This document shows positions 22,943 through 43,734 of a stretch of 64,000 bases of DNA, piece by piece (position 1 is the first letter of the stretch; the number at the start of each line of letters is the position of its first letter). Position numbers and translations under genes: made by a program. Source of the DNA: Candidatus Omnitrophota bacterium (lineage in GTDB: Bacteria; Omnitrophota; Gorgyraeia; Duberdicusellales; 4484-171). The stretch covers positions 44,773-108,772 of the forward strand of contig PMCS01000018.1 in assembly GCA_003154195.1 (NCBI GenBank), read 5' to 3'. The notes below the pieces were generated by a model. That model ran no database searches. It saw only the letters and a list, made by a program, of their open reading frames with translations, and had not been told where the DNA came from.

Positions 22943-23091
22943 AAGTTCTCGGCTGTAGAATTTGAATAAAAACCTAAAACCTACCACCAAGACACCAAGG
23001 CATAAAGAAAAGGTGAATTTTCTTGGTGGCTTGGTGTCTTGGTGGTAAATCTTTTGGTTTTATTTTATCTGCGATCATCAGCATTTTCTAA

Positions 23092-25414: not shown

Positions 25415-25504
25415 AGAATATAGAAAAAATATAGATATAGAAAACCATAAAGATTCACCACGAAGGTCACGAAGGTCACGAAGAAATTTTTTATAAATGC
25501 CTGA

Positions 25505-26011: not shown

Positions 26012-26135
26012 ATTAAAGTTTGACCAAAGACCTTTGATGTATTTTCAAAATTTTCTGAAAGAAAATTTTGGTCTTTAGTCTTTGGTCTGTTGTCTTTAGT
26101 CTAATCTTAGTGCTTGGTGGCAGATGTTTTGCTTT

Positions 26136-26747
26136 TTATTCTTTCGTCGTCAAGGTAGTTTCCCGGCGGCAGCGGCTGCAGAGGATTTTTACCCGGTCGG
26201 AACGGCCGAAGTCTTTTAACGCGGAAGTGATATTTTCGTCGATTATACCCAGGCCTTTCAGCTTTGACAGGTAAAGGGTGGGGTTAGAAAAGCTAAGTTC
26301 CCCGATTCTTTCGGCGATCCATTTCAGGTGGTCTTTGCAAGCAATGACCGCGCCGCAAATTTCGCATAACTGTAATTCTTTTTCAATCTCTTCCTGGGAA
26401 AGTTTGCGGTCAAAAAACGACAATTCCCAGTCGTTGGATAATTTAATCCCCTCTTTATCGGCAAGGCAGCCGGCTTCGCACTGGCCGCAAAAAATACAGG
26501 TGTCGGTATAGTGGATCATTTTACGCCGTGGCGATTTGTCATCGATGATATCGACTGATTTTATCGCGCGGACCGGGCAGACCTGTTCGCAGGCGGTGCA
26601 GCCGACACATTTAGCTTCGTTGAACTTAGGTTGCCCCCGGAAACTGGGATAAGGCCTATGCGTTTCGTAAGGGAATTTTGAAGTATACGGCCCTTTCCAC
26701 AACGCTTTTATCGCTTCGATTAATTCTCTCAGTTTAGGCAATCTCAT
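26136..26747 (-). CDS. 2x[4Fe-4S] ferredoxin subunit (NuoI/EchF/MbhN-like) with C-terminal extension
   Basis: CVGCTACEQVCP and CIFCGQCEAGC motifs. Confidence 0.75.
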   Translation of the reverse strand: MRLPKLRELIEAIKALWKGPYTSKFPYETHRPYPSFRGQPKFNEAKCVGCTACEQVCPVRAIKSVDIIDDKSPRRKMIHYTDTCIFCGQCEAGCLADKEGIKLSNDWELSFFDRKLSQEEIEKELQLCEICGAVIACKDHLKWIAERIGELSFSNPTLYLSKLKGLGIIDENITSALKDFGRSDRVKILCSRCRRETTLTTKE

Positions 26748-27046
26748 TTATCCCCGTTTTTTTTAAACGGCTCTATTCCGTTCTTGAGGGCCGCCCGGCT
26801 TATTGCGTGGGCCGCCGTCGGAGTCGTCAATAATATAAAAATCATGCAGATGATGATTTTCGCACCGGCGGCGTTAAGGCCGGTTACCAGAAAGGTCCCG
26901 AATAATATGCCGCATGTCCCGGCAGTGACGCATTTGGTCGCGGCTTGCATGCGGTTATAAACGTCGGGCAGCCTGATGATGCCGATACAGCCGATCACAT
27001 TAAATGCCAGCCCAATACTTATAAATATAAAACCTGCGATAACCAT
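26744..27046 (-). CDS. mrpG: Mrp antiporter-module subunit G (MnhG/MbhB-like)
   Basis: IIRLPDVYNRMQAATKCVTAGTCGILFG, the MnhG signature; 3 TM helices. Confidence 0.85.
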   Translation of the reverse strand: MVIAGFIFISIGLAFNVIGCIGIIRLPDVYNRMQAATKCVTAGTCGILFGTFLVTGLNAAGAKIIICMIFILLTTPTAAHAISRAALKNGIEPFKKNGDK

Positions 27047-27209
27047 AGTTTATATTCCAGTTTTTTTCTTGTGGTTTTGCCACAAGGTATTTTCTCGAAG
27101 GGAAGGTTTGCTCGCCAAAAGTTTCCAACTTTTGGCGGAGTCTCGCTCTTGACGGAGAAACCGCAGGTTTCCAAATATATAAATCAATTCCTGCTTCGCA
27201 GGAATTGAT
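27047..27209 (-). ncRNA. Structured intergenic region (three stem-loops) between mrpF and mrpG
   Basis: Hairpins cttgtggttttgccacaag; gccaaaagtttccaacttttggc; aaatcaattcctgcttcgcaggaattgattt. Confidence 0.3.
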
Positions 27210-27579
27210 TTATTCGTCGAAGCCCTTTCCTTCCAGGTATTTTGCCAGGGCCAGCGTGCTGATAAAGCTTTGCAGCGTCCAGGCAATCGCGATGTCAATA
27301 TACCATGACCGTCCGGTGGGGATGGTAAGGATCGCGCATAGCCCCACGAGCATAACGCCTAAAATATCCAGAACGACGATCCGGTCGGCTCCCGTCGGGC
27401 CTTTAATCAGGCGCCAGAGCAGCAGCAAACAGCAAAGCAAAAGGATAAACAGCGCCCGGCCGAAAAAAGCGACATGAGGCAAGTCGTGATAAAAAAGAAA
27501 CGGCAGAGGTTTTATAATGATCAACCCGATTGCCGACATTAAAGCTATTGCTCCGATAAACCACTTCAATCTTTTCATG
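27210..27579 (-). CDS. mrpF: Mrp antiporter-module subunit F
   Basis: RLIKGPTGADRIVVLDILG, the MnhF signature. Start set at MKRLKW, which is directly preceded by the recurrent start-proximal palindrome. Confidence 0.8.
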
Positions 27580-27645
27580 TTATTCCCCTTATTTTTTTGC
27601 TTAGCAAAAAAATAATTATATAAAAAAATTCCGGAGGGAATTTTT

Positions 27646-28143
27646 TTATTCAAAAATCTTTTTCAACAGCGGTTCGAACTTACCCGCAATCAGCCGTGTC
27701 GCGGTTTCGCTGTCTTCGGCCTTAACGTTAATCCAGTGAATATATAAAATACCTTTATCTTTATCGATATTGACGCACATCGTTCCCGGAATAAGGGTAA
27801 TTGAATTGGCTAAAAAAGTAAGCCCGATATCGCTGGTCAACGATGTTTTTATCTGAACGATCCCCGGGTTAATCGGCAGGTCAGGATGCAGAATACGCCA
27901 GGCAGCGTCAATATTGGCTTTGAGGCACTGCCAGGCAAATAATGGTAAGTAGCCGATTAAAAAATACCCCCAGCGAGAAGGGCGCGTGAACAATCGCGTT
28001 CCGTCGATAAATAAATCGCCGCAGAGTAAAGCCGTCAAGCCGGCCGCGGCAATGCCCGCTAAAAGATGCTGGCTGTCCGGCGGCCAGGATAAAAGCATCC
28101 AAATCGCTAAAGCGGCGATGAATAAAGCTAACCTGCGCCTCAC
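27646..28143 (-). CDS. mrpE: Mrp antiporter-module subunit E
   Basis: SITLIPGTMCVNID, MnhE-like. Confidence 0.8.
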   Translation of the reverse strand: MRRRLALFIAALAIWMLLSWPPDSQHLLAGIAAAGLTALLCGDLFIDGTRLFTRPSRWGYFLIGYLPLFAWQCLKANIDAAWRILHPDLPINPGIVQIKTSLTSDIGLTFLANSITLIPGTMCVNIDKDKGILYIHWINVKAEDSETATRLIAGKFEPLLKKIFE

Positions 28144-29645
28144 TTTATTCCTCCCAGAATCATTAAGCTATGGTTTATTCCTTCCTGCAGGACTCCGCCG
28201 GCTTTGCCCAGAAAAATTTCACGAGCGCCGGCAAAGCCCAGTATTCCGCCGATGACGCAGATGGCCGCCAGGATGGTCATGGACAAGCGCATCAGCCCCG
28301 GCACTTCTTTAATGTCGCCTAAATTTGTGTTGAATTCGCCACCAAAAGCATATTTCATGACCTTGGCGAATGAGGCTAAGGTCATGATGCTGACTAAAAC
28401 CGCCAGGAAGGCGTAACCGAACCGGCCGGCATCGACTAACGCTACGATAATGATTAGTTTGCTCCAGAAACCGTTGAGCGGCGGGATCCCGGCGATGGAC
28501 ATCGACGCGACCAAAGCCGTGGCGCCGGTTACGGGCATCTTTTGCGCCAAACCGCCCATCTTTCTTAAATCGCGTGTTTTCGCGGCATATTCGACTGCGC
28601 CGGAATTTAGAAAGAGCAGAGATTTAAATACCGAGTGGTTAAAAAGATGGAACAGGCCACCGAGGATGCCCAGGGGCGTCCCCAGTCCGATACCTAAAAA
28701 AACATAGCCGATCTGGCTTATCGAATGATAAGCTAACAGGCGTTTAAAATCCCACTGGCCGATCGCCGAGAATACTCCTACTGTCATCGATAACGCGCCT
28801 AAAAACATCAGGACAGCGGAAAACTTCGCGTCCATCCCCAGCACATTAAAAAATAAGCGGCATAATGTATATACGCCTAAGGATTTTATGAGTACGCCGG
28901 AAAGCATCGCGGAAATGGGCGCCGGGGCAGAAGGGTGTGCGTCGGGAAGCCAGCCGTGAAAAGGTACCAGCGCCGCCTTAAGTCCGAATCCCATTATAAA
29001 CATGACGGCTACCATCAACGAGATGTTGCTTTTGCCTTTTTGCAGCAGAGCGCAGGCGATATCCGCCATATTGAGCGTTGAGGTAAAACTGTATAATAGC
29101 CCGATGCCGAGAAGAATGAATAACGACCCGACTGCGCTCATCAGGGTATATTTAAAGGAAGCTTCCAATTCATGACGTCCTGTCCCGAAGGCGACTAACG
29201 CAAAACTTGCGATTGAAGCAATTTCTAAAAAGACGAACAGGTTGAAAATATCGCCGGTGATCACAACACCGTTCATTCCTGCGACCATCAATAAGAATAA
29301 AGCGAAAAATTTTCCTTTTGAGGTGTATCGTTCCATGTACGGCCCGCTGTAAATTGCGATTAAAAAGGCGATTAAATTTACCGTGACCAGCATAAACGCC
29401 GAAAATCCGTCAATCACCAAAGTTATGCCCAGCGGCGGTTTCCAGCTGCCCACGTTATAGATTAAAATCCGGTAAAGACCGACTGCTTTAACCGCGGCCA
29501 GGGACAATATCAGCAGCATTCCCGTAACAATCAGCCCCATCGCGTAAGGAAAATGTTTCATCCTTTTCTCTAAAAGAGAGATCAGGAAAGCTCCCCCTAA
29601 GGAGATGACGATAAAAAGCGGAGCGATATTCGCGGCAGCAATCAT
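28140..29645 (-). CDS. mrpD: Mrp subunit D / NuoN-M-like proton-translocating subunit
   Basis: 14-TM antiporter-like fold; conserved WLPDAH and GIPPLNGF motifs. Confidence 0.85.
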   Translation of the reverse strand: MIAAANIAPLFIVISLGGAFLISLLEKRMKHFPYAMGLIVTGMLLILSLAAVKAVGLYRILIYNVGSWKPPLGITLVIDGFSAFMLVTVNLIAFLIAIYSGPYMERYTSKGKFFALFLLMVAGMNGVVITGDIFNLFVFLEIASIASFALVAFGTGRHELEASFKYTLMSAVGSLFILLGIGLLYSFTSTLNMADIACALLQKGKSNISLMVAVMFIMGFGLKAALVPFHGWLPDAHPSAPAPISAMLSGVLIKSLGVYTLCRLFFNVLGMDAKFSAVLMFLGALSMTVGVFSAIGQWDFKRLLAYHSISQIGYVFLGIGLGTPLGILGGLFHLFNHSVFKSLLFLNSGAVEYAAKTRDLRKMGGLAQKMPVTGATALVASMSIAGIPPLNGFWSKLIIIVALVDAGRFGYAFLAVLVSIMTLASFAKVMKYAFGGEFNTNLGDIKEVPGLMRLSMTILAAICVIGGILGFAGAREIFLGKAGGVLQEGINHSLMILGGIK

Positions 29646-29977
29646 CCTTGCAGCTCCTTGATTTTCGTAACGTCGAATGTTTTATATTTCTCGTAGATTC
29701 GCAAAGCCAGGGCGATAAGTATCGAGGTAAACGCCAGGCCGATGATAATTGAGGTTAAGGCCAGGGCCTGGGGAAGCATATCGACCATGTTTTCGATACG
29801 CGCGTTCGGCGAAAGAATCGCGGAGCGCCCTTCCCGGCGGTAGCCCAGGATTATGAAAAATAGGTTGACCGCGTATTGCGCGATGATCGTCCCGATGATT
29901 ATTTTGATGATATTGCGCTTGCGCACGATACAATAGATGCCCAGACAGAAAAGAATAAGGCACAATAGATAAATCAT
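29642..29977 (-). CDS. mrpC: Mrp subunit C (NuoK-like)
   Basis: IIKIIIGTIIAQYAVNLFFI...LPQALALTSIIIGLAFTSILIALAL. Confidence 0.85.
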   Translation of the reverse strand: MIYLLCLILFCLGIYCIVRKRNIIKIIIGTIIAQYAVNLFFIILGYRREGRSAILSPNARIENMVDMLPQALALTSIIIGLAFTSILIALALRIYEKYKTFDVTKIKELQG

Positions 29978-30429
29978 TACCGGTCATCCTCCCGATTTAT
30001 ACGTAAAAGTATCAGGGCGATAAAAATAGCAAAAAGCCCTGCTCCTACCTTGACGCCGATGGCGATATTATATAAAGGCATAATCCCCGCGCTGAACAAT
30101 CGGAATGGTTCGCCTTTACCGATGAAATTCAGTAAAAAATAACCGCCGGTAAAGCCCAGGCCGGCAAGGGCTAAAAACATCAACGCGCCTAGATTTTCAA
30201 TGAATGATGCCGCCGCCCGGGGTAATTTTTTAAAGGCTGATTCTTTACCGTAAGCGAGCATCAACTGGATAAACGCAAGGGCGATAATCACGCCGCCCAC
30301 GAATCCTCCTCCCGGAGAAACGTGGCCGTGGGAAAGGATGTATATGCCGTATAAGAAAATCGGGCCGGCGGTAAGCCGGGTTACGGTTTTTACGATTAAA
30401 GACATCCCTTTATCTTTTTCGTTATTCAT
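29977..30429 (-). CDS. mrpB: Mrp subunit B
   Basis: GHVSPGGGFVGGVI, the MnhB signature. Confidence 0.85.
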   Translation of the reverse strand: MNNEKDKGMSLIVKTVTRLTAGPIFLYGIYILSHGHVSPGGGFVGGVIIALAFIQLMLAYGKESAFKKLPRAAASFIENLGALMFLALAGLGFTGGYFLLNFIGKGEPFRLFSAGIMPLYNIAIGVKVGAGLFAIFIALILLRINREDDR

Positions 30430-30964
30430 TGTCCAGCCCTGTTTCTTCGTTTTTTCTTCCCTTTCGCCGTAAAATAGTTAATACGCCGATTACTGCCGTA
30501 AAAAGAACTGCTGCTTCGCCCAGAGTGTCGTAAGCCCTGAAATCAAGGATTACCGCGGATACCAGGTTGGTTGCCCCGGTATCTTTTAATCCTTCTTTTA
30601 AATATGCCGATGAGGTTTTTATCGTCGGGTAGCCGAATTGCGGCAGCTCTTTGAAACATTTAACCGCGGTGAAAATAAAAACAAAGATAAAACAAACGGT
30701 AATGACGGTATTTACCAACCACCGGCCGCTGGTGGAAAAAGGCAAGTCTTCTTTCATCGTGGCCCGGATTAATATTATCAGGCTTAATATTTCCACAATC
30801 AACTGGGTGATTGCCACATCGGGAGCTTTAAGGACAAGGAAGGTTAACGAAAGCCCCAGCCCGGTTGCGCCCAGCGCGATTACCGAGGAAAGTAGATCTT
30901 TCGTTTCGACGGCGATCGCCGCGGCGACGATGATGAAAATCAATAAGATGTATAAATCCAGCAT
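30422..30964 (-). CDS. MrpA C-terminal-domain / MnhB-like subunit (DUF4040-type, MbhD/E-like)
   Basis: AITQLIVEILSLI ... NLVSAVILDFRAYDTLGEAAVLFTAVIG. Confidence 0.65.
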   Translation of the reverse strand: MLDLYILLIFIIVAAAIAVETKDLLSSVIALGATGLGLSLTFLVLKAPDVAITQLIVEILSLIILIRATMKEDLPFSTSGRWLVNTVITVCFIFVFIFTAVKCFKELPQFGYPTIKTSSAYLKEGLKDTGATNLVSAVILDFRAYDTLGEAAVLFTAVIGVLTILRRKGRKNEETGLDNE

Positions 30965-31093
30965 AAGCGCCCCTTTATTCTCCTTCGCCGAATACCCTGT
31001 GGCTTGCCACAGGGATGAAGGCTTCTGGTATTTGGCTTCGGAGAAATGAAGATAGATACCCCGCGGGCTTGCCGCGGGGAGTACATTTGTGCT

Positions 31094-32749
31094 TCATTTA
31101 ATGCTCAGCGCGTAAAACAATATAATCATCCCTAGAAGGCACCAGGCCAAATAATTGGAGATTATACCGTTGTGCATACGGTTTAGTATTCCATTAAGCC
31201 AAAAAACAATTTTTTTGCCTGATTCGTACAAGTCAAAGTTTTTCTCTTCCGCTAACCGGTAAATATTTTTAAAAGGCGGCGCATCGCTTATTGTGTTATA
31301 GAATTCGGTCCCGGATACGCGCATTTGAGGATGGTCTTCCAGGATCTCGCCGCCGATAAAGTTCCGGGTTTCCCTCGGTTTTTTGTTTACGCCCAGCCAA
31401 TAAAATAATAAGCCGATAATAATCGCCGACAATAATAAAATCGTCGCAAGCGGAGAATTCCAAACCCCCGGAAAAACTAATCCGGGACCGACGCTGGGGA
31501 TGATATAATTTTTTAACGGCAGTTGGTAGGCGAAGACGCCGAATAATACGCATAGCGCCGCTAAGACGATTCCGACCGCAAGCATCGGCAATGGGGCTTC
31601 TCCCTGCTTTATGCTCGCGTTGGTTTTATCCGCAGGTTGGCCTAAAAACACCGCGTTAATCAATTTCATGAAGCTGGCTAAAGTCAGGGCGCTGCCGAAC
31701 ATTGCCGCCGCGAGGTATATCATCCACAGGGTATTTCCGGTTTTGGCGGAATCCACGATTGCCTGGTAAATCATCCATTTGGAAGCGAAGCCGTTAAAAG
31801 GCGGAATGCCCGAGATGGCCAGCGAAGCGATTAAAAAAGTTATAAAAGTAACCGGCATAAATTTAGCGTAACCGCCGAGTTTATCCAGATCGGTCGTGCC
31901 GGCTTTTTGTTCCACGTTGCCGGCGGAAAAAAAGAGGCATGATTTATAGATGGCATGGTTGAGCATGTGAAACAAACCGGCGGCGATTCCCAAAGCGGTT
32001 CCCGTACCGATACCTAAGACCATGTAACCGACCTGGCTTACGGCATGGTATCCCAGCAGGCGTTTCAGGTCATGCTGGACCAGCGCCATCATTACTGCGG
32101 CTACGATAGTGATGCTCCCCATAACCATTAGCAGGGTGTTCATCGCCGGGTTCATTATAAATAGATTTAACGACAGGCGGCAGAGCAGATAAATACCCAG
32201 AAGTTTGTCTAAAGATGCCGGCAAATACGCCGTTACCGGAGCCGGCGCGTCCTGGGCGGTATCGGGGATCCAGGTATGGAACGGCATTAATCCGGCTTTG
32301 GCGAAAGCGCCGCAGGCTAAGCACAGGTAAGCGGCGATTGCCGTATTCGAATCTAACGCTATCTTAATCTTAGAGATTTCCAGGGTACCGGTGATTTTCC
32401 AGACCATTGCCAGGCCCAATAACATTATCGCGTCGGAACCGCCGATGATAATCAAAGCTTTCTTGGCAGTGGCCGGAGTATTTTTATTTTCTCCAAAACT
32501 GATAAGAAGATATAAAAGCAGGCCTAAAAATCCCCAGAACACTATTAACACCAGAAGATTGCTTGAAAATATAACACCTAAAGATGCGATAAGGGTCAAT
32601 AAAATATAAAGGTAGTAGGGAAAAATATTTTTTCTTCCCCGCATAAAATCAAAAGAGTAAACCGCAGTCAATAGGGTAAACAAAACCGCGAATAGCCCTA
32701 TAAAAATTGAAAGATTGTCCAGTAATAATAATTGCCAGAAATTGTCCAT
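31094..32749 (-). CDS. mrpA: MrpA/NuoL-like antiporter subunit (MbhH-like)
   Basis: Multi-TM; WIPDTAQDAPAPVTAY and GIPPFNGFASKW motifs. Confidence 0.85.
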   Translation of the reverse strand: MDNFWQLLLLDNLSIFIGLFAVLFTLLTAVYSFDFMRGRKNIFPYYLYILLTLIASLGVIFSSNLLVLIVFWGFLGLLLYLLISFGENKNTPATAKKALIIIGGSDAIMLLGLAMVWKITGTLEISKIKIALDSNTAIAAYLCLACGAFAKAGLMPFHTWIPDTAQDAPAPVTAYLPASLDKLLGIYLLCRLSLNLFIMNPAMNTLLMVMGSITIVAAVMMALVQHDLKRLLGYHAVSQVGYMVLGIGTGTALGIAAGLFHMLNHAIYKSCLFFSAGNVEQKAGTTDLDKLGGYAKFMPVTFITFLIASLAISGIPPFNGFASKWMIYQAIVDSAKTGNTLWMIYLAAAMFGSALTLASFMKLINAVFLGQPADKTNASIKQGEAPLPMLAVGIVLAALCVLFGVFAYQLPLKNYIIPSVGPGLVFPGVWNSPLATILLLSAIIIGLLFYWLGVNKKPRETRNFIGGEILEDHPQMRVSGTEFYNTISDAPPFKNIYRLAEEKNFDLYESGKKIVFWLNGILNRMHNGIISNYLAWCLLGMIILFYALSIK

Positions 32750-32751
32750 AA

Positions 32752-33939
32752 TTACTTTTGGCCGTATTTTTTTCTGATTCTCTCGGTTTTTTCCTGAGAA
32801 AGCTTGACCAGATTTTGGCCGTTATAAAGATGTTTTCCTTTTATGTCGCGCACTGCCAGTCGTTCCGTGCAACAATAGCAAGGGTCAATCGCGGCGAGGA
32901 TTATCGTCGCGTCCGAAATGGTTTCGCCTACCACGGTCGCTTTATAGGTGGGGAGATTCATAAAAGTGGGCGCCCTGACTTTATGCCGGACCGGCCGGTT
33001 GGTGCCGTCGCTGCGAACGTAGTGAAAACATTCGCCCCGGGGAGCTTCGATGCGGCCGATGCCTTCACCCGACGGTATATTTTTTATGCCGGCGTCGATT
33101 TCCCCCTGAGGAAGCGCCGTCAAACAGGCTTTTAATATTTTTATCGATTCAAATGCTTCCAGCACGCGGAGCAAAAGTTTGTCGAATACATCGCCGTTGG
33201 GAGTAACGATTATTTGCCAATCTACTTTATCATACGCGGCATAGGGTGAATTTTTTCTTACGTCTTTAGCGACGCCGCTTGCCCTTGCGACTGGGCCCAG
33301 CGCCGAATAATCTATCGCTTCTTCTTTGGTCAGTATTCCTACGCCTTTGGTGCGCGCGTGCAATACCGGGTCGTCAGCTATGGCTTTTTTAAGCATTTCC
33401 AGCGTAGGTATGATTGAATCGATTTTTTTAAGGACAACCGGTATATCCTCGGATTTAATATCGCGGCGTACTCCTCCGGGCTTGAACATCGCGTAGTTAT
33501 TGCGGTTTCCCGAAAGGATTTCCATGACGTCTAAAATTTCTTCTCTTAATTTCCAGGCCCACATGTAGACAGTGTTGTATCCTAAAAAGTGCCCGGCCAG
33601 CCCCAGCCATAAGAGATGGGAATGTATTCGTTCGCCTTCGGCGATGATCGTGCGGATATACTGCGCGCGTAAGGGTATTTCTATTCCGGAGATATCTTCG
33701 ACGGCTTCGACCAGCGCGAAGGGGTGGCTGGTCGAACATATGCCGCAAATACGTTCGACTAAAAATGTAGATTGGTCGAAAGTCTTGGATTCCGAAAGTT
33801 TTTCGATGCCGCGATGGTTGTAGCCTATCCGGACGTCGATATCCACGACGCGCTCGCCTTCCACGGTAAGCGTGAAGAATTCCGGTTCTTCCTGTAAGGG
33901 ATGATACGGCCCGATTGGTACTATAGTTTTTTTTGACAT
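32752..33939 (-). CDS. Group 4 [NiFe] hydrogenase large subunit (EchE/MbhL, NuoD-like)
   Basis: N-terminal RICGICSTSH (RxCGxCxxxH) and C-terminal DPCYCCTER (DPCxxCxxR) Ni-Fe ligand motifs, followed by a ~35-aa C-terminal extension. Confidence 0.85.
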   Translation of the reverse strand: MSKKTIVPIGPYHPLQEEPEFFTLTVEGERVVDIDVRIGYNHRGIEKLSESKTFDQSTFLVERICGICSTSHPFALVEAVEDISGIEIPLRAQYIRTIIAEGERIHSHLLWLGLAGHFLGYNTVYMWAWKLREEILDVMEILSGNRNNYAMFKPGGVRRDIKSEDIPVVLKKIDSIIPTLEMLKKAIADDPVLHARTKGVGILTKEEAIDYSALGPVARASGVAKDVRKNSPYAAYDKVDWQIIVTPNGDVFDKLLLRVLEAFESIKILKACLTALPQGEIDAGIKNIPSGEGIGRIEAPRGECFHYVRSDGTNRPVRHKVRAPTFMNLPTYKATVVGETISDATIILAAIDPCYCCTERLAVRDIKGKHLYNGQNLVKLSQEKTERIRKKYGQK

Positions 33940-33944
33940 ATGTT

Positions 33945-34040
33945 CTAGATGATGATCGCTGATAAAAATAAAGGCAATTGATAATTATTTTTTATCTGTG
34001 GTCATCTGCTTCCTTTGACCTGTGATCATCTGCGCTTACA
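33945..34040. repeat. Intra-operon direct repeats tgtgRtcatctgc x2
   Basis: atctgtggtcatctgcttcctttgacctgtgatcatctgcgc between the large-subunit and NuoC-like genes. Confidence 0.4.
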
Positions 34041-34044
34041 GAAT

Positions 34045-34518
34045 TTATACTCCCCTGTCCCTTATCGCGTCTTTATCCCATTCCTTATAATCGTAGCGTA
34101 AGGGGTAAGAACCATCCGGCCAGTTTTCCGGTAAAAGCAGTTTTCGCAAATCCGGATGCCCGGTGAAATCGATGCCGAGCAATTCGTGCATTTCCCGTTC
34201 AATCCAATTTGCCGCTTCGAAAGTTTTAGCCAGGGAATCGATTCGTGGTGTATCCCGGGAAAGTATTACCCGCAGCGAAACGGTCAGGTTTATATCGTCA
34301 AAAGTGAAATGGTAAAGTATTTCGATATGCCGGCGGCAGTCTATCCCGGAAGCGATATTGAATCTTGCCCCCAGGTCTTTAAACACATAGGTAGAGATTT
34401 TGACTAACGCCTCCGGTTTTATCCCGACATATAACCGCCGGGGCGATTTATCGAAAAAATCAATAATATCGTCTTTAAACCGTTGTTTTAAATTGTCGAG
34501 AATTTCTTGTTTTTGCAT
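34045..34518 (-). CDS. NuoC-like 30-kDa subunit (EchD/MbhK)
   Basis: HFTFDDINLTVSLRV...ANWIEREMHELLGIDFTGHPD. Confidence 0.8.
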   Translation of the reverse strand: MQKQEILDNLKQRFKDDIIDFFDKSPRRLYVGIKPEALVKISTYVFKDLGARFNIASGIDCRRHIEILYHFTFDDINLTVSLRVILSRDTPRIDSLAKTFEAANWIEREMHELLGIDFTGHPDLRKLLLPENWPDGSYPLRYDYKEWDKDAIRDRGV

Positions 34519-34544
34519 AAATAGTACGAATAAATTTTTAAATC

Positions 34545-34660
34545 ATTATAGAATATTGTAGGGGCGGATCCGTGTATCCGCCCGTTACGATTTATTTTAT
34601 TATCATTGAATATTTTATTATTTTGTAACGGGCCGACACATAGGTCGGCCCCTACGATAT
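34545..34660. repeat. gtaggggc...gcccctac palindrome, copy 1
   Basis: tgtaggggcggatccgtgtatccgcccgttacgat...gtaacgggccgacacataggtcggcccctacgat. Confidence 0.6.
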
Positions 34661-35095
34661 TTATTTTTTCGCCGCGCCCTGTTTTACTTTTTCGATTAAT
34701 TTAACTACCCCCGCGATAATCGCTTCCGGCTTAGGCGGACAGCCCGGTATATAAATATCCACGGGAATTACCTTATCGATCGGCAGCGGGCAATTATAAC
34801 TATCAATAAACATACCCCGGGATAGCGAGCATTCTCCGATGGCTACGACGAAACACGGTTTGGGCGCCTGCTCGTAAACGAGCTTTACGCGTTCCATGGC
34901 TTGCCGGTTTCCCGATCCGGTGACTACCAGAATGTCCGCGTGGCGGATGCTTCCGACAAGTTGTATCCCAAAACGCTCGACATCGAAGCGCGGCGTCAGG
35001 CAGTCCAACAACTCGATGTCACAATTGTTGCAGCTGCCGGTCGATAAATGAAAAATCCAAGGAGACTTTAACAACGCTTTTGTTTTTATGTTCAT
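34661..35095 (-). CDS. Group 4 [NiFe] hydrogenase small subunit (NuoB-like, EchC/MbhJ)
   Basis: GSCNNCDIELLDC, DILVVTGS, GECS, GCPPKP, the NuoB-type [4Fe-4S] ligands. Confidence 0.85.
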   Translation of the reverse strand: MNIKTKALLKSPWIFHLSTGSCNNCDIELLDCLTPRFDVERFGIQLVGSIRHADILVVTGSGNRQAMERVKLVYEQAPKPCFVVAIGECSLSRGMFIDSYNCPLPIDKVIPVDIYIPGCPPKPEAIIAGVVKLIEKVKQGAAKK

Positions 35096-35099
35096 ATAT

Positions 35100-35215
35100 G
35101 TACCAAAATTTATATTGTAGGGGCGGATTCGTGTATCCGCCCGCTAGGATCTATTTTATGATTATCGGATATTTTGTAACGGGTCGATACATGGATCGAC
35201 CCCTACAATCAAAAT
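35100..35215. repeat. gtaggggc...gcccctac palindrome, copy 2
   Basis: attgtaggggcggattcgtgtatccgcccgctaggat...gtaacgggtcgatacatggatcgacccctacaat. Confidence 0.6.
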
Positions 35216-35216
35216 A

Positions 35217-36140
35217 TTACAATCCCATCATCGCTAACGCCACCGCGATTATCGCGATAGCCGTCACCGGCCCCCAGAAGAATCTCAGCGCCTGATCGAT
35301 CCGCACACGGGGGTTGGTATTGCGGATGACGGTTATCAGGACGACGACGGCAAGATATTTTAAAAAACCTAACGCAATTCCCGCGGCGCTTTGTGTTTGC
35401 CAGCCGCCCATAAACATCAATACCAGAAAAAACGGCAGTATAAAAAAAAGGATACTTTTGGTTAATTTAAAAGCGGCTAAGGTTTTTCCTGAGCATTCGA
35501 TTAGCGGGCCGCCGATGATCTCCGTTTCCGCTTCCGCGATATCGAAAGGCGCCAGTCCCAGTTTTGCCTGGACGCATAGCAGGGCTGCCAAAAATGCCAA
35601 CAGCCCCGAAATGCCGGATATAAACATCCCGTGGTGCCGTATCGTTAATATCTCCCCCAGTTTCAGGGAATAGCCGCTTTTTATTATCGGCACAAATATC
35701 GCCAGTATAAAGGGAAGTTCATAACCTAAAATAAGTTTCATTTCCCGCGATGAGCCTAAACTTGCCAGGGGATTCCCTGAGGCAAATCCGGTAACGATAA
35801 TAGCGAGCGACGGTATCGTCAAAAGATATAGCGTAACGATTAAATCGCCCAAAAACGTTTGCTGAGGGTTAATAGTGTTTATCCAGAGAATAGTTGCCGT
35901 CACCATGACGCTCGCCAGGCCGATCAGCGGCGCGCCCAGAAATATCGCGCGCGAAGCACTTTCGGGGATAAGAGTTTCTTTACCCAGAAGTTTCACGATA
36001 TCGGTCAGCGGCTGCAGTAACGGCGGCCCGACGCGGTATTGCAGCCGCGCCGTAACCTTGCGGTCAACCCAGCTGGCGAATAGTCCAATTCCCGCGCTTA
36101 ATATAAAACCATAAATGAATAAATATATTAGGTAAACCAT
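35217..36140 (-). CDS. NuoH/HycD-like membrane subunit (EchB/MbhM)
   Basis: WVDRKVTARLQYRVGPP, the NuoH signature; 8 TM helices. Confidence 0.85.
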   Translation of the reverse strand: MVYLIYLFIYGFILSAGIGLFASWVDRKVTARLQYRVGPPLLQPLTDIVKLLGKETLIPESASRAIFLGAPLIGLASVMVTATILWINTINPQQTFLGDLIVTLYLLTIPSLAIIVTGFASGNPLASLGSSREMKLILGYELPFILAIFVPIIKSGYSLKLGEILTIRHHGMFISGISGLLAFLAALLCVQAKLGLAPFDIAEAETEIIGGPLIECSGKTLAAFKLTKSILFFILPFFLVLMFMGGWQTQSAAGIALGFLKYLAVVVLITVIRNTNPRVRIDQALRFFWGPVTAIAIIAVALAMMGL

Positions 36141-36144
36141 AAGA

Positions 36145-36262
36145 ACCTACTCGGCTTCGGTAACCGTTAATCGGTTGCGTAGCTCGTTACGGTTATCGTC
36201 TATCGTGTTTTGCCGATAGCCGAATAACGATTAACGATTCGAGTTACGCAACCCTTTAACGC
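36145..36262. repeat. Imperfect palindrome built from taacg/ttacg units
   Basis: cggtaaccgttaatcggttgcgtagctcgttacgg ... ccgaataacgattaacgattcgagttacgcaacc. Confidence 0.5.
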
Positions 36263-36263
36263 T

Positions 36264-36830
36264 TTACGCTTTATCTCTATCCCAGTGTATCGAATGAACG
36301 ATCAAGTTATCGCCCGCTAAAAATGTATTTTTATCCAACTCGCTATCGGCCTTAACTAGTTTTACCGCGCTATAGGGACAAGTCTTTATGCACAGCGGTT
36401 CGTCTTTTTCATTTCTCCGGTCAAGACAAAAGTCGCAGGCGTGGATTAAAAACGGGACACTCTCCGGATAAATCGTGCCGTAGGGGCAGGCGTGCGAACA
36501 TGATTTACAGCTGACGCAGCGCATATTATGGCGAATCAGTAATTTGTTTTTATCTTTTTGCTGTTCAAGAGCTTCCCGGGGGCACGCCGCGACGCAGTGC
36601 GGTTCTTCGCAGCGGCGGCAAACCAGAAAATACGTTGCCAGCTCTCTGATAGAAGTAATGCCGTTATTGCCCTGGTTTTGACGGTGATATAAATAACTGC
36701 ATTTTATCACGCATTCTTTACAGAGGCTGCCGGAACAGATATCGAGATCGACATAGAGCCGCACGTCGTTTCCTTTCTGCGGGGTTACGTTGGTTTTTCC
36801 TTCGTGTATTTGCTGCGCGCTATTATCCAT
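36264..36830 (-). CDS. Polyferredoxin-type Fe-S protein
   Basis: Multiple Cys clusters: CKECVIKC, CRRCEEPHCVAACP, CVSCKSCSHACP, CDFCLD...CIKTCP. Confidence 0.7.
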   Translation of the reverse strand: MDNSAQQIHEGKTNVTPQKGNDVRLYVDLDICSGSLCKECVIKCSYLYHRQNQGNNGITSIRELATYFLVCRRCEEPHCVAACPREALEQQKDKNKLLIRHNMRCVSCKSCSHACPYGTIYPESVPFLIHACDFCLDRRNEKDEPLCIKTCPYSAVKLVKADSELDKNTFLAGDNLIVHSIHWDRDKA

Positions 36831-36928
36831 AATTTTTTGCTCCGCAAAAAATTATCCGCATCCCCTTAGGGATGAGGAGAGACATTAAAATTGTTATTGA
36901 ACTTTTTTTCAGTTTTCGTTTTCTGCAA

Positions 36929-36984
36929 ATCCGCTCGTAGGCGGATTTATTTCTAAAATGATTATGCGGTTTACCGCATAATCA
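36929..36984 (-). terminator. Tandem stem-loops downstream of 36987-37874
   Basis: aaatccgctcgtaggcggattt and aaaatgattatgcggtttaccgcataatcatttt. Confidence 0.5.
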
Positions 36985-36986
36985 TT

Positions 36987-37814
36987 TTAGTCCCAGAGCT
37001 CATGAAAATTCTTTATCTGGTTATAGGTAAACACCGGTCCGTCTTTGCAGCAATAGTATGTTCCCAGGCGGCAGTGGCCGCATTTGCCGATGCCGCAGGA
37101 CATATTTTTTTCCATCGAAAGATAAAGATTATCTTCCTTAAAACCGAGCCCCAGTAATTTCAGGGTTACAAATTTCATCATGATCGGCGGCCCGCAAACA
37201 ATAGCTATGCCGCCTGGGCAATCCATTTCCAAATTTTCTAAAATTGTCGTAACCAGGCCGACATTGCCCTGCCATCCTTCTTCGCTTTTATCGACCGTAA
37301 TTTTAAAATCCAGCGCGTGCTGTTTCGGCCATTCGCTGATCTCATTCTTATATACCAGTTCTCTGGGATTTTTACAGCCGCCGCGAAAAATAAGATTTTT
37401 CAATTCGCCGCGCATTTCAAAAAGAGTATACATCAGGCTTCGGATCGGGGCAAAACCGCAGCCGCCGCCTACGACCAGGACTTCCCGGTTTTTGAATTTA
37501 TCGGTAGGATAACCGTTGCCCAGGGGGCCGCGCACTCCGATAATATCGCCGGGTTTCAGCAAGTGGATTTTCGATGTTACCTTACCGACTTTCATCACCG
37601 TCACTTCCATGATTTCTTTTACCGACGGCCGCGAGGACGGCGTAAAAAACGCTTCTCCGGACCCGGGAATAGTAATCGCGACAAATTGGCCGGTGCGAAA
37701 TTCCATTAGTTCCTTAGGCCGGAAACGAATGGTTATAATCGTAGGCGTTTCCGGGATAACTTCAAGCACCTGCGCTTCGATCGGCCGATAAGGATTCTCT
37801 TCTTTGCTGGGCAT
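36987..37814 (-). CDS. FAD/NAD(P)-binding [2Fe-2S] oxidoreductase subunit (PyrK/AsrB/sulfhydrogenase-gamma-like)
   Basis: Ferredoxin-reductase fold (RFRP...GQFV; GPLGNG; VVGGGCGFAP). C-terminal CGIGKCGHCRLG...C [2Fe-2S] motif. Start set at MPSKEEN. Confidence 0.75.
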   Translation of the reverse strand: MPSKEENPYRPIEAQVLEVIPETPTIITIRFRPKELMEFRTGQFVAITIPGSGEAFFTPSSRPSVKEIMEVTVMKVGKVTSKIHLLKPGDIIGVRGPLGNGYPTDKFKNREVLVVGGGCGFAPIRSLMYTLFEMRGELKNLIFRGGCKNPRELVYKNEISEWPKQHALDFKITVDKSEEGWQGNVGLVTTILENLEMDCPGGIAIVCGPPIMMKFVTLKLLGLGFKEDNLYLSMEKNMSCGIGKCGHCRLGTYYCCKDGPVFTYNQIKNFHELWD

Positions 37815-37874
37815 CAGCGTTACTCCATCAAAACATTTTAAATTTAAGAATAAAAAAAGGTAATCAGAAACCAA

Positions 37875-37995
37875 AACTTTTGTCCACAGATTTCACTGAT
37901 TTTCACAGAAACTATGGATCAAGGTAATGTTAAAAAGCGAAATTAAAAAATTAATCTGTAAAATCTGGGCAATCTGTGGACAGGGTTTATTGCTT
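37875..37995. repeat. Inverted-repeat element gtccacagattt...aatctgtggac inside the operon
   Basis: tgtccacagatttcactgattttcacagaa ... aatctgtaaaatctgggcaatctgtggacag. A second copy is at 43935-44080. Confidence 0.55.
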
Positions 37996-38000
37996 TAACG

Positions 38001-39029
38001 TTATACTGTTAAATCCACCAGTTTCCTTAATATTCTACGTATATCTATTTTCGCCGGGCAGGCCGAAATACAGCGGCCGCAGCCGGTGCAGGCGTAAACG
38101 CCGGCAACCTTGGGAAAATAATCAAACTTTTTCTCAAACCGGTTGCGCAGCCGCATCCATAACTTTTTACGCGGGTTAGCGCCGCCGGCGACCCGGGCAA
38201 AGTCCTTTATCAGGCATGAATCCCAGATGCGTAAACGATCCATATTCTTTTCGTCTTTCTGGTCGTAAAGCAAAAAACAGTGGCAAGTCGGGCAAATCGT
38301 ATTGCAGGCGCCGCATTCGACGCAGGTCTTCGCTTCATCCTGCCATAACGAAGCGTCATAGTTTTTATCGATGATTTGTTTATACCGCGTTTGATCGGGT
38401 ATGCTGTTTTCTTCGATATTTTTTTCCACTTGTTTTATCATATTGCTTCTCAAGGTTTCTTTTTCTTTTAACAAGCTATCGCCGGCTTGGGATACCAGCG
38501 CGGAAAATTTATCCACGACGCCCTGTCCTTTCGTTGAACCGATTTCTAAAATAAAACCACCGGCAATCGGAGAAAGATTTAAATCATAATCTTCCTGGGG
38601 GTACGGTTTTATGCCTAACGCTAGACAGAAGCAGGTATCGATGGCGCAGGTGCAATCGCAGGATAATATCAGATTATCGCGCCGCGCTTTAAGATAAAAC
38701 GGGTCGGGATAATCATGGTTGCGGAAAACATGGTCTTGAACTTTGAAGCCTTTTAAATCGCAGGCTTTTACGCCGACGATGCAAAAAGGTTTTTTCCCAT
38801 CCTCGGGCATTTCCGGACGAAAATCGCGCGCGATGGTTTCCCGGGCGCGGGAAAAAAATGCCTTCATCGGTTCGAACGGCCGGACTTCGCCCAGGGTTAT
38901 ATTTTTATCTAAACTGCGATAAGGCTGGTAATAACGCTGGCGGCCTTTTTTTACGGGGGCATAAACTAAAAAATCGTCCCCCAGTTTATCGAGCATTTTG
39001 TATAAATTATTCGTAGCTATATATAGCAC
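38001..39029 (-). CDS. Fe-S subunit, AsrA/sulfhydrogenase-beta-like (4Fe-4S dicluster)
   Basis: CVECGACNTICPTCHC and CTGCGRCISACP motifs. Pairs with the PyrK-like gene as in AsrAB/HydBG. Confidence 0.7.
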   Translation of the reverse strand: MLYIATNNLYKMLDKLGDDFLVYAPVKKGRQRYYQPYRSLDKNITLGEVRPFEPMKAFFSRARETIARDFRPEMPEDGKKPFCIVGVKACDLKGFKVQDHVFRNHDYPDPFYLKARRDNLILSCDCTCAIDTCFCLALGIKPYPQEDYDLNLSPIAGGFILEIGSTKGQGVVDKFSALVSQAGDSLLKEKETLRSNMIKQVEKNIEENSIPDQTRYKQIIDKNYDASLWQDEAKTCVECGACNTICPTCHCFLLYDQKDEKNMDRLRIWDSCLIKDFARVAGGANPRKKLWMRLRNRFEKKFDYFPKVAGVYACTGCGRCISACPAKIDIRRILRKLVDLTV

Positions 39030-39040
39030 GATTTTCCTGT

Positions 39041-39709
39041 TTATACCCCGTCAGGTTGCGCGGAGGCGGTTAATTGTCCGACGACTCCGGTTTTGATCAC
39101 CGCGTTGGCAAAATAAATCGTATTTTCCAATTCCAATACCAGGTTTACGTTATTGATTACGACATTCTCGGGGCCATGCAAACGCATGGGCGCGAAATTT
39201 AATATTCCCTTTACACCGGCTTGGATCATGGTATCGGCAATTTGCTGGGCGGCAAAGTCGGGAACCGCGATGACCCCGATTTTAATCTGGTTCTGGCGGA
39301 TGAAATTTTCCATTTCGGCGATGGGAAAAACCGGTATTTCTCCGGCCGCGTTTTGCTTTACGGTATTGATGTCAAATCCCGCGATAATTTTAATACTTTC
39401 TTTTTCGAAACCTTTATAATTCAGCAGAGCGGTTCCGATATTACCGATGCCGGCTACAACGACTTTATGGATTTCATCTTTTCCTAATAGCCTATTTAGA
39501 TTATTGATAAGGTCGTCGATTTGATAGCCGCCCTTGCGGGTTCCGGAAATGCCGAATTGAGAAAAGTCTTTACGTACCTGTGTCGCGGTAACCCCCACGG
39601 CATCGGCTAAATTATCGGAAAAGATTTTAACAAATCCCAAAGATTTAAGCCGGTATAGAGCATTTTTGTACCGCGATAGGCGAATTACACAATTTTTGTT
39701 GGTTTTCAT
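39041..39709 (-). CDS. rex: Redox-sensing transcriptional repressor Rex
   Basis: Winged-helix N-terminus (IRLSRYKNALYRLKSLGF..ISGTRKGGY). Rossmann NADH site VVAGIGNIGTAL. Confidence 0.85.
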   Translation of the reverse strand: MKTNKNCVIRLSRYKNALYRLKSLGFVKIFSDNLADAVGVTATQVRKDFSQFGISGTRKGGYQIDDLINNLNRLLGKDEIHKVVVAGIGNIGTALLNYKGFEKESIKIIAGFDINTVKQNAAGEIPVFPIAEMENFIRQNQIKIGVIAVPDFAAQQIADTMIQAGVKGILNFAPMRLHGPENVVINNVNLVLELENTIYFANAVIKTGVVGQLTASAQPDGV

Positions 39710-39796
39710 TGTGGGTATTATATGTTCTTTTTTTCACAACATTGGATAAAGTATACTACATGATTATGCGTAGTCAAGCATTTTTTGTGATTTTTA

Positions 39797-40903
39797 TCAC
39801 ATCGAAACTAGTATTTCCTGTGCTTTTTTGAAAACTTCCTGGGGGGTAATCGCGCTCAGGCAGAGAAATTCTTTTACGCAGTTGTGGGCGAGGCAATTCC
39901 GGCAGCCGACATCTTTATGGAGATAAAACGACCGTATGCCGACTGGTTTCCAGCGGGTCGGCGAAATCCCCGGGTTCTTACGGCTGAAAATAGCGATTAC
40001 CGGAGTTTCCATCGCCGCGGCGATATGCGCCGGGCCTGAGTCGTTAGAAATTAAAAGAGCGCCGCGTTTCATCAGGGCGCCGGTTTCCGCCAGGCTTAAG
40101 CGGCCGCGCAAGTCAATCACGCCACACTCGCTTACTAAACGTTCAGCCAAATTTTTATCTTCCGCCGCGCTGATAACCGCTATTTTGTATTTAGTATCTT
40201 TTTGTAACAATCTGATTAATTGTAAAAAATAGTTTTGCGGCCAACGTCGCGAGGGACAAGAAGCGCAAGGATGGATGATGATTATTTTTTCTTGAGGCGC
40301 GACGCCTTTTTCTTCCAGTACGGCATTTACCTTATTAATTGAATCTTCCCTGATGGGGAAAAAAATATTTTTGTCTTTGATGGGTATGTTTAAGGCCCGT
40401 AATAAATCCAGCGTGTATTCGATTTCGTGTTTTACCCCTTCCTGTTTTAGGTGAGGGATTTTTTTTGTAAGGAGCCAGCCGTTTTTTTTATCCCAACCGA
40501 TCCGCTGAGGTATGCCGGCCAGGAAGGAGATGATATGAACGCGGTTGGTAGGATGCAGGATGATCACCCAATCGAATTTCTTTTTGCGTAAATAAAACGA
40601 GAATAAAAAGGAATGGAATAAACTATTTTGTTTTTTATCTTTGTCGTAGAGCACTACTTCATTTAAATCGGGATTAGCCTCAAAGATATCTTTAGCATAA
40701 GGCCGGCACATAAATGCGACATACGCTTTTGGATAGGCCAGGCGTATATTTTTGATAACCGGCGTGGAAAGAATCGCGTCGCCGATCCGGTCGGTGCGGA
40801 CGATCAGGATACGTTTGGGGTCTTTTTTTGGGTTTATTTTAAAATTATCATTTAGCATTGGACATTTATCATTTTTTAAAAATTTAAAATGTGTAATGGT
40901 CAA
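39797..40903 (-). CDS. ADP-heptose:LPS heptosyltransferase (GT9)
   Basis: ILIVRTDRIGDAILSTPVI; C-terminal NDSGPAHIAAAMETP. Confidence 0.8.
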   Translation of the reverse strand: MTITHFKFLKNDKCPMLNDNFKINPKKDPKRILIVRTDRIGDAILSTPVIKNIRLAYPKAYVAFMCRPYAKDIFEANPDLNEVVLYDKDKKQNSLFHSFLFSFYLRKKKFDWVIILHPTNRVHIISFLAGIPQRIGWDKKNGWLLTKKIPHLKQEGVKHEIEYTLDLLRALNIPIKDKNIFFPIREDSINKVNAVLEEKGVAPQEKIIIIHPCASCPSRRWPQNYFLQLIRLLQKDTKYKIAVISAAEDKNLAERLVSECGVIDLRGRLSLAETGALMKRGALLISNDSGPAHIAAAMETPVIAIFSRKNPGISPTRWKPVGIRSFYLHKDVGCRNCLAHNCVKEFLCLSAITPQEVFKKAQEILVSM

Positions 40904-40922
40904 TGAACAATTTAAAATGAAA

Positions 40923-41849: not shown

Positions 41850-41928
41850 AAATTCGGCCTAAATAACATTTCGGCGCGTGGCCGAATTTATCCGTGATAA
41901 TCAGTGTTAATCAGTGGCTGAAACACTT

Positions 41929-43720: not shown

Positions 43721-43734
43721 ATTTATATTTTACC

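Follow-up and report, generated by a model that had tools for sequence, protein, structure and literature searches.

The minus strand of a 64-kb stretch of DNA (contig PMCS01000018.1; hereafter, the window) from a Candidatus Omnitrophota metagenome-assembled genome carries, at positions 26136–39709, the gene for the redox-sensing repressor Rex followed by the genes of a membrane-bound [NiFe] hydrogenase, the 16 co-linear genes hunA–P, which are predicted to encode a 16-subunit, Mrp-linked group 4 enzyme. The locus is the hun operon of this bacterium, with rex and a candidate operator upstream and a set of maturation genes downstream (Table 1). Two features stand out: the flavin-containing module HunAB, the likeness and conservation of which slightly favor NAD(P)(H) over ferredoxin as the redox partner of the enzyme, and the downstream HypC::HydE–HydG cassette, which may point to a different way of making the Fe(CN)2CO unit of [NiFe] hydrogenases.

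The locus and its relatives

The original prediction, which listed rex, an AsrAB-like pair, a polyferredoxin, a NuoH/B/C/D-type hydrogenase core, a complete series of Mrp genes and a NuoI-like ferredoxin, holds in full as far as the gene content is concerned: every gene was found, on the minus strand and with the order and limits described, using the open reading frame (ORF) list, Pfam and NCBIfam. GCA_003154645.1 contains the identical locus, as do several metagenomes from peat and wetlands, and homologues of the large subunit with 81–85% identity carry the annotation Candidatus Omnitrophota.

When each GTDB species was represented by one genome, the search recovered at least 578 relatives of the large subunit; L numbers below denote individual related loci. 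The 80 best-scoring relatives come from Omnitrophota, Desulfosarcina variabilis Montpellier (a cultured organism with a complete genome), Fermentibacterota/Aegiribacteria, Hydrogenedentota, Spirochaetota, Nitrospinota, Nitrospirota, Elusimicrobiota, Sumerlaeota, Acidobacteriota, Binatia and Tritonobacter. The D. variabilis locus (L040) occupies 6.085–6.106 Mb of NZ_CP159846.1. Synteny was counted in the 74 species loci with both ends readable, and motif conservation was derived from alignments of 69 HunA, 72 HunB and 81 HunG orthologues.

Table 1. Features of the rex-hun locus and the downstream maturation genes (positions in the window).
Feature	Position	Strand	Evidence and remarks
Candidate Rex operator, perfect palindrome TGTGATAAAAATCACA	39786..39801	.	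Sole TGTGA-N6-TCACA site at 0–1 mismatch in 64 kb
Sigma-70-like promoter TTGACT-16-TATACT	39750..39777	-	10/12 positions; consensus match only
rex, NADH/NAD+-sensing repressor	39041..39709	-	NCBIfam equivalog NF003996, 228.6 bits vs cut-off 138; Pfam Put_DNA-bind_N + CoA_binding
hunA, Fe-S beta subunit, AsrA / sulfhydrogenase beta-like	38001..38996	-	Fer4_22 3e-31; 9nez_B 3e-41
hunB, FAD/NAD(P)-binding [2Fe-2S] gamma, AsrB / sulfhydrogenase gamma-like	36987..37814	-	FAD_binding_6, NAD_binding_1, DHODB_Fe-S_bind; 9nez_C 7.5e-53
hunC, four-cluster polyferredoxin, FdnH/DmsB/NrfC/HycB family	36264..36830	-	Fer4_11 9e-16
hunD, NuoH/MbhM-type membrane subunit	35217..36140	-	NADHdh 2.6e-63
hunE, NuoB/MbhJ-type small subunit	34661..35095	-	Oxidored_q6 4.6e-29
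hunF, NuoC/MbhK-type	34045..34518	-	Complex1_30kDa 2.6e-27
hunG, [NiFe] large subunit, CGIC...CYCC	32752..33939	-	Complex1_49kDa + NiFeSe_Hases
hunH, MrpA/NuoL-like antiporter subunit	31094..32749	-	Proton_antipo_M 2.7e-59
hunI, MbhD+MbhE (MrpA C-terminal part)	30422..30964	-	PF13244 1.6e-17, PF20501 4.7e-10
hunJ, MnhB	29977..30429	-	PF04039 4e-24
hunK, MnhC/NuoK-like	29642..29977	-	Oxidored_q2 4e-24
hunL, MrpD-like second antiporter subunit	28140..29645	-	Proton_antipo_M 2e-67
hunM, MrpE	27646..28143	-	MNHE 4.7e-41
hunN, MrpF	about 27210..27578	-	MrpF_PhaF 1.6e-15; called gene 122 aa
hunO, MrpG	26744..27046	-	PhaG_MnhG_YufB 1e-23
hunP, NuoI/HycF/MbsN-like 2x[4Fe-4S]	26136..26747	-	NCBIfam formate hydrogenlyase (FHL) iron-sulfur subunit 3.6e-23; MbsN 6u8y_N 1.3e-14; HycF 7z0s_F 1.2e-13
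hycI-type large-subunit endopeptidase	25505..26011	-	HycI 7e-16; 3' of hunP in most related loci
Short hypA, 80 aa	25172..25414	-	HypA profile positions 1–66 of 112 only
HypC::HydE fusion	23092..24411	-	PF01455 6.7e-15 + Radical_SAM; TIGR03956 HydE 254.3 bits vs cut-off 254.6
hydG, HydG-type radical SAM tyrosine lyase	21446..22990	-	TIGR03955 HydG 456.6 bits vs cut-off 312

Two of the gene calls require comment. The longest ORF of hunA starts at 39029, upstream of the called start at 38996, and hunH lacks about 70 N-terminal residues of NuoL/MrpA, with the NCBIfam alignments beginning at about profile position 70. The hunH gene of the window abuts hunG; in seven related loci (L007, L013, L017, L033, L049, L080 and L086), about 620–670 nt of extra sequence lie between the two genes.

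The large subunit HunG retains the L1 (RICGICSTSH) and L2 (DPCYCCTER) motifs, both at least 98% conserved in the orthologues, as well as a 35-residue C-terminal tail after DPCYCCTER, and a gene for a HycI-type protease lies 3' of the operon. Its best solved relatives are MbhL of Mbh (6cfw_L, E = 2e-90) and HycE of Escherichia coli (7z0s_E, 4e-82), with the subunit of the non-hydrogenase Mbs being a far weaker match (4e-49), and all the NuoB-, NuoC-, NuoH- and NuoI-like core partners are encoded in the same operon. Judged by these motifs and matches, HunG is a genuine group 4 [NiFe] large subunit, predicted to be catalytically competent, in agreement with the original assignment of a group 4 large subunit with intact Ni-Fe cysteines. 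Published analyses place the large subunits of Omnitrophota and of Hun in the HydDB group 4g (PMC8542988; bioRxiv 10.1101/536078).

Identity with Hun and comparison with known enzymes

The architecture of this locus is already known, because the window fits, in both genes and motifs, the definition of Hun. Glass et al. (2021) named the 16-subunit Hun supercomplex (hunA–P), listed Omnitrophica among its hosts, named Kosmotoga as a further carrier, described the HunG signature CGIC...CYCC and proposed ferredoxin as the donor through HunABC (bioRxiv 10.1101/536078, section 8; Environ Microbiol). Before that, Matheus Carnevali et al. (2019) described an ‘enigmatic’ cluster of a group 4 hydrogenase, Mrp, cooF, asrA and asrB, with the nearest relatives in Zixibacteria and Omnitrophica (PMC6349859), and Méheust et al. 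(2020) used the name ‘Mbh-Mrp-oxidoreductase type’ for an enzyme the function of which was unknown to them (10.1101/765248); Williams et al. (2021) listed for Omnitrophota a hydrogenase labeled ‘Group 4g, Mrp-linked’, for which they assumed ferredoxin as the partner (PMC8542988). The genes at 26136–38996 follow the published order and include the AsrAB-like pair without AsrC, and there is no structural difference from the Hun of Glass et al., the 16 genes, their order and the HunG signature being identical. The locus is, therefore, a correct re-discovery of the published Hun operon. The present analysis extends that description by rex and its conserved operator, by the downstream HypC::HydE/HydG cassette, by further hosts, among them the cultured D. 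variabilis, and by the argument for NAD(P)(H) rather than ferredoxin.

Comparison with the characterized complexes shows which parts of Hun are shared and which are distinct. With Mbh of Pyrococcus furiosus (group 4d, 6CFW), Hun has in common the Mrp-derived arm (the equivalents of MbhA–H), the NuoB/C/D/H/I core and HycI-type processing; Mbh, however, consists of 14 subunits, with one antiporter-like subunit and with ferredoxin electrons entering directly at MbhN, whereas Hun has a second MrpD-like subunit, a longer, HycF-like NuoI and three extra cytoplasmic subunits, HunABC. The two antiporter-like subunits (hunH and hunL) together with hunABC rule out Mbh proper. In FHL (group 4a, 7Z0S) and in the Thermococcus formate- and CO-respiring enzymes (group 4b), as in Hun, a soluble module is wired to the core through a HycB/CooF-type polyferredoxin and a HycF-type NuoI, and the group 4b enzymes, like Hun, have a full Mrp module attached; but the donor module of groups 4a and 4b is a molybdopterin formate dehydrogenase or a carbon monoxide dehydrogenase (CODH), in contrast to the FNR-type flavoprotein and Fe-S protein of Hun. 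Membership in these groups was rejected given that the locus contains no molybdopterin or CODH gene and that none is inserted in the 74 related loci.

The beta and gamma subunits of the group 3b enzyme sulfhydrogenase I (9NEZ) are homologous to HunA and HunB, respectively, but group 3b hydrogenases combine them with cytoplasmic group 3 alpha and delta subunits and have no membrane or Mrp part, whereas the Hun large subunit is of the NuoD/Mbh type. Assignment of Hun to group 3b was discarded since HunG is only 21–22% identical to the 3b alpha subunits of L087 and L088. With complex I, Hun would share the concept, namely, a pyridine-nucleotide-oxidizing flavo-Fe-S module on a NuoB/C/D/H/I junction with antiporter-like pumps; the NADH modules themselves are unrelated (NuoEFG with FMN in complex I versus an FNR/PyrK-type FAD protein in Hun), and the acceptor would be H+ at the Ni-Fe site of Hun as opposed to quinone.

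The beta-gamma pair as part of the enzyme

The beta-gamma-polyferredoxin block (hunA–C) lies directly upstream of the hydrogenase core (hunD–E–F–G) in all 74 species loci, which span more than 10 phyla (Omnitrophota, D. variabilis, Fermentibacterota, Hydrogenedentota, Spirochaetota, Nitrospinota, Nitrospirota, Elusimicrobiota, Sumerlaeota, Acidobacteriota and Tritonobacter), with median gaps of 12, 16.5 and 8.5 nt along this stretch. Even in Spirochaetota, whose Mrp genes have been moved or inverted, the beta-gamma-polyferredoxin-(H)-B-C-large subunit-NuoI genes remain together. Some relatives are reported to carry a gene for a molybdopterin protein inserted between hunB and hunC (PMC6349859; bioRxiv 10.1101/536078); no such insertion was detected in the 74 loci.

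Neither AsrC nor any siroheme protein was found among the scanned ORFs of the window, and no sulfur-metabolism genes recur in the flanks of the related loci. The NCBIfam matches to AsrA (126.7 versus a cut-off of 323 bits) and AsrB (225.7 versus 289 bits) are both sub-threshold, which, together with the lack of AsrC in the window, excludes an AsrABC sulfite reductase. Because the pair precedes the core in every one of the loci and the window contains no AsrC-like gene, it belongs with the hydrogenase, as originally proposed, and not with a separate system of sulfite reduction. Judged by this invariant synteny, the beta-gamma pair is a fixed, integral part of the predicted Hun enzyme.

Rex and its operator

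The operator form given in the original prediction, with the N6 spacing, yields no signal in the window (15 matches to TGTGAA-N6-TTCACA at up to three mismatches, compared with 22 expected). Conversely, the consensus TTGTGAANNNNTTCACAA, with an N4 spacer (PMC6391272), leads to a single perfect palindrome in the entire 64 kb, TGTGATAAAAATCACA, located 77 nt upstream of the rex start codon. This candidate box adjoins the best promoter-like site of the 24–41 kb region (39750–39777), and a second candidate promoter (39791–39763) has its −35 hexamer within the box. Exact TGTGA-N6-TCACA sites number 16 in 1.24 Mb of sequence from 69 species loci, and 15 of them fall within the 21 kb that lie upstream of rex, or of hunA where rex is located elsewhere, an approximately 875-fold enrichment upstream of the related operons; most of the other rex-adjacent loci contain pairs of one-mismatch boxes with 21-nt spacing. 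This conservation of the box upstream of rex or hunA makes the predicted Rex control of the locus, along with autoregulation of rex, well supported: Rex would bind the box and repress rex-hun until the NADH/NAD+ ratio rises.

The adjacency of rex does not, however, identify NADH as the substrate, given that in C. bescii the [NiFe] hydrogenase Ech, which depends on ferredoxin, is likewise under Rex repression (PMC6391272).

The maturation cassette

The gene cluster extends 3' of hunP with hycI, a short hypA, a HypC::HydE fusion and hydG. The short hypA product keeps the MHE nickel-binding start but has no C-terminal zinc-finger half, and an 80-amino acid hypA recurs in the cassette of other phyla, in L087 (9756–9998) and L088 (9755–9997). 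In the fusion protein, which starts with MCYAIPG, a HypC chaperone domain that keeps Cys2 is joined to a HydE-like radical S-adenosylmethionine (SAM) enzyme. The C-terminal auxiliary-cluster motif of the Omnitrophota HydG is altered, with FCTAGYRCGRTGEC in place of FCTACYR.GRTG, that is, with C-x6-C-x5-C replacing CxxC; the variant FCTAGYRCGRTG(K/E)C was found in 12 loci (including L090, L091, L093 and L094) and the canonical FCTACYRxGRTG in four (L087, L146, L149 and L169). None of hypB, hypD, hypE, hypF, hydF or an [FeFe] hydrogenase was found in the window.

Across the species loci, the slot after hycI-hypA is occupied by one of two cassettes, never by both within the flank: hypF-hypC-hypD-hypE in L007–L009, L015, L017, L020, L022, L025, L026, L035–L037 and L084, or hypC::hydE-(rex)-hydG in the window, L010, L013, L014, L027, L029 and L076. 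When the fusion was used as the query, 80 metagenome loci (L090–L169) were retrieved, in which the fusion lies 3' of a [NiFe] operon, either group 3b or Hun, wherever upstream DNA exists; hycI is present in the flank in 39 of these loci, [FeFe] H-cluster motifs in one, and hypD, hypE or hypF in the nearby DNA of none. The use of the same slot as hypFCDE, the association with [NiFe] operons, the lack of hypD/E/F and the near lack of [FeFe] motifs in these 80 loci suggest that HypC::HydE and HydG may represent an alternative, [FeFe]-type radical SAM pathway that makes the Fe(CN)2CO unit of [NiFe] hydrogenases in place of HypCDEF. Under this scheme, HydG would produce CO and CN from tyrosine, and the HypC::HydE fusion would handle the synthon. 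The maturation cassette is a more unusual object than the hun operon itself. The only literature trace that was found is a single sentence in a 2026 preprint that calls a ‘HydE-HypC fusion’ unusual, and the supplements of PMC8542988 contain no occurrences of Hyp or Hyd genes.

The canonical cassette shows a peculiarity of its own. The hypF match is about 1.0 kb long (about 350 amino acids) in L007–L009, L015, L017, L020, L022, L025, L026, L035–L037 and L049, compared with about 2.25 kb in L023, L024 and L048, which suggests that HypF is truncated in the Omnitrophota loci with the canonical hyp cassette. Separately, an intergenic repeat family of ACCACCAAGGCACTAAG / CTTGGTGCCTTGGTGGT-like units flanks the maturation genes in the window (21315–21446, 22950–23071, 24411–24485 and 25110–25551) and appears again at 56263–56489.

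The redox partner and the proposed mechanism

Among the chains of solved structures, HunA and HunB are closest to the beta and gamma subunits, respectively, of P. furiosus sulfhydrogenase I. In HunB, conservation reaches 98% or more for the GGGxGxAP and CGPP motifs, the FAD motif FTPSS and the four [2Fe-2S] cysteines, a pattern that points to a functional FNR-type NAD(P) site that would be under strong selection; in HunA, the cysteine motifs CxxCxxCxxxCP are kept among the orthologues. The structural matches of HunC are FdnH, HycB3/4 of the hydrogen-dependent CO2 reductase and E. coli HycB. The genomic frame rex-beta-gamma-X-hycI-hypA-hypC::hydE-hydG is common to two kinds of hydrogenases: in Saganbacteria (L087), Margulisbacteria (L088) and about 30 metagenome loci, X stands for the group 3b delta and alpha genes, and in the window and its relatives, for hunC–P. 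Because of the likeness to sulfhydrogenase I, the conservation of the HunB motifs, the FHL-like wiring and the frame shared with group 3b, the comparative evidence supports NAD(P)(H) as the partner of Hun better than it supports the published ferredoxin model, and we lean toward this reading with a confidence slightly above even.

The enzyme would then work as an FHL in which a sulfhydrogenase-type beta-gamma pair takes the place of formate dehydrogenase, with HunABC physically attached to the membrane-bound core. The FAD of HunB would exchange hydride with NAD(P)(H), and single electrons would pass from the [2Fe-2S] cluster of HunB to the [4Fe-4S] clusters of HunA and onward through the four clusters of HunC, the HycF-like HunP and the proximal cluster of HunE to the Ni-Fe site of HunG. 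This redox turnover would be coupled, via HunD and the full Mrp set HunH–O with its two antiporter-like subunits, to the movement of H+ or Na+. The enzyme is probably reversible because NAD(P)H and H2 are near equilibrium at environmental H2 levels: in one direction, it would turn NAD(P)H into a source of H2, with the ion gradient as a driving force once H2 has built up, and in the other, oxidize H2 to produce NAD(P)H with ion pumping. H2 evolution would need help from the gradient or low H2, and the reverse reaction would conserve energy. The linked proposal, that Hun acts reversibly as an ion-translocating NAD(P)H:H+ oxidoreductase and that, in this lineage, [FeFe]-type radical SAM enzymes rather than HypCDEF make its Fe(CN)2CO unit, is put forward tentatively, and we consider it rather unlikely that both parts hold.

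Several points weigh against this explanation as a whole. Under standard conditions, H2 formation with NAD(P)H as the donor is uphill, and all characterized group 4 enzymes that we know of use ferredoxin, formate, CO or F420-independent low-potential donors. Hun is a named but still uncharacterized ion-pumping hydrogenase, for which its namers proposed a ferredoxin donor through HunABC (bioRxiv 10.1101/536078) and for which the HydDB label of group 4g is ‘ferredoxin-coupled (putative)’. Control by Rex does not tell the possible donors apart, since the ferredoxin-dependent Ech is repressed by it as well, and the adjacency of rex is limited to Omnitrophota-like lineages and Tritonobacter. In this particular genome, many hun genes are separated by AT-rich, hairpin-laden spacers of 105–190 nt, compared with gaps of about 9–17 nt in the 74 relatives, and there is one plausible terminator, a GC-rich hairpin with a T-rich tail, between hunH and hunI (31059–31079).

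The proposal of Glass et al., the HydDB label and the Rex control of Ech (PMC6391272) count at the same time in favor of a ferredoxin-coupled Hun, in which reduced ferredoxin would feed the Ni-Fe site through HunABC or HunP, with H2 production and H+/Na+ pumping as in Mbh, and the flavoprotein would be a mere electron relay or a regulatory site; furthermore, the closest solved large subunit is that of the ferredoxin-dependent Mbh, and Williams et al. assumed ferredoxin for the Omnitrophota enzyme (PMC8542988). Single-electron transfer between Fe-S clusters, however, needs no FNR-type FAD/NAD(P) domain, yet its signatures are retained at 98% or above in 72 species; the nearest solved relative of HunB is the gamma subunit of sulfhydrogenase I, with the NCBIfam name NADPH-dependent hydrogenase, and the rex-beta-gamma frame also serves group 3b enzymes. 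We regard the ferredoxin-coupled enzyme as a serious alternative that is nevertheless unlikely.

An enzyme with three substrates, either confurcating ferredoxin and NAD(P)(H) or acting as an ion-coupled ferredoxin:NAD(P)+ oxidoreductase with a hydrogenase vent, thus combining the roles of Rnf and Ech, would be compatible with the two potential entry points for electrons, the flavin of HunB and the clusters at the surface of HunC, HunA and HunP, and the molybdopterin insertion of some relatives implies that the module takes extra partners. This alternative appears improbable considering that the locus encodes no second flavoprotein and that the insertion is missing in all 74 loci. To our knowledge, moreover, PyrK/AsrB-type flavins are not known as sites of bifurcation, and in NfnAB the bifurcating FAD sits in NfnB. 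Finally, the sub-threshold AsrA and AsrB matches and the reduction of sulfur in vitro by sulfhydrogenase I (cited in PMC8542988) could be taken to indicate that the beta-gamma-polyferredoxin module reduces a non-pyridine substrate, such as polysulfide or S0, or else is the AsrAB pair of a sulfite reductase encoded elsewhere; with both scores below the cut-offs, no AsrC or siroheme protein in the window, no recurring sulfur genes in the flanks, and the pair joined to the core across more than 10 phyla at gaps of about 12–17 nt, this appears to be the least probable of the alternatives. NAD(P)(H) as the partner of Hun remains the reading that we favor.

The spacers of the window lie within 33940–38000, 30965–31093, 27047–27209 and 26012–26135; those between hunD and hunE (35096–35216) and between hunE and hunF (34519–34660) contain a common element of about 110 nt with the ends GTAGGGG...CCCCTAC. 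An Rfam scan of the 20–44 kb region at E-values up to 0.1 gave no match, so that the spacers do not belong to known RNA families, and terminator-like sites inside the operon are not in excess (32, compared with 26 ± 6 expected from shuffled sequences). Co-transcription of the hun genes in this genome is likely. One more repeat family, TAATCTGTAAAATCTG.GCAATCTGTGGACA, occurs at 24960, 37952 and 44046.

Other features of the window

Upstream of rex, positions 39797–52829 are occupied by a lipopolysaccharide-core/lipid A block that includes three GT9 heptosyltransferases, GT4/GT9 fusions, LpxK, a Kdo transferase and a lipid A acyltransferase fused to an ELM1-like domain; an integrase gene (52937–53893) comes next. 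On the other side, an ORF of 638 amino acids at 17383–19299, with internal 48-nt repeats (18320–18700), has no Pfam or NCBIfam match, and an array of paralogous ankyrin-repeat/TPR genes at 1691–7081 has near-identical 5' and 3' ends (repeats D1, D3 and D13: 3052–3573, 5209–5545 and 6931–7088).

Implications

Hun-type large subunits are encoded in at least 578 species-level genomes from more than 10 phyla of anaerobes that inhabit peat, sediments, aquifers and digesters. The published metabolic reconstructions handle Hun as one more ferredoxin-dependent Mbh and, possibly, mis-model it. Should the ion coupling between NAD(P)H and H2 prove true, it would become necessary to revise how redox balance, syntrophy and H2 thresholds have been modeled in Omnitrophota, Atribacterota, Fermentibacterota and others. 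HypC::HydE and HydG bear on where the [NiFe] hydrogenases of anaerobes obtain their CO ligand. If its NAD(P)(H) coupling is real, Hun would be a functional analogue of complex I in which a flavin module of the sulfhydrogenase type is combined with a [NiFe] site and a full Mrp antiporter and, as such, would represent a second, independent joining of a pyridine-nucleotide dehydrogenase to a complex-I-type pump, with a bearing on the origin of complex I.

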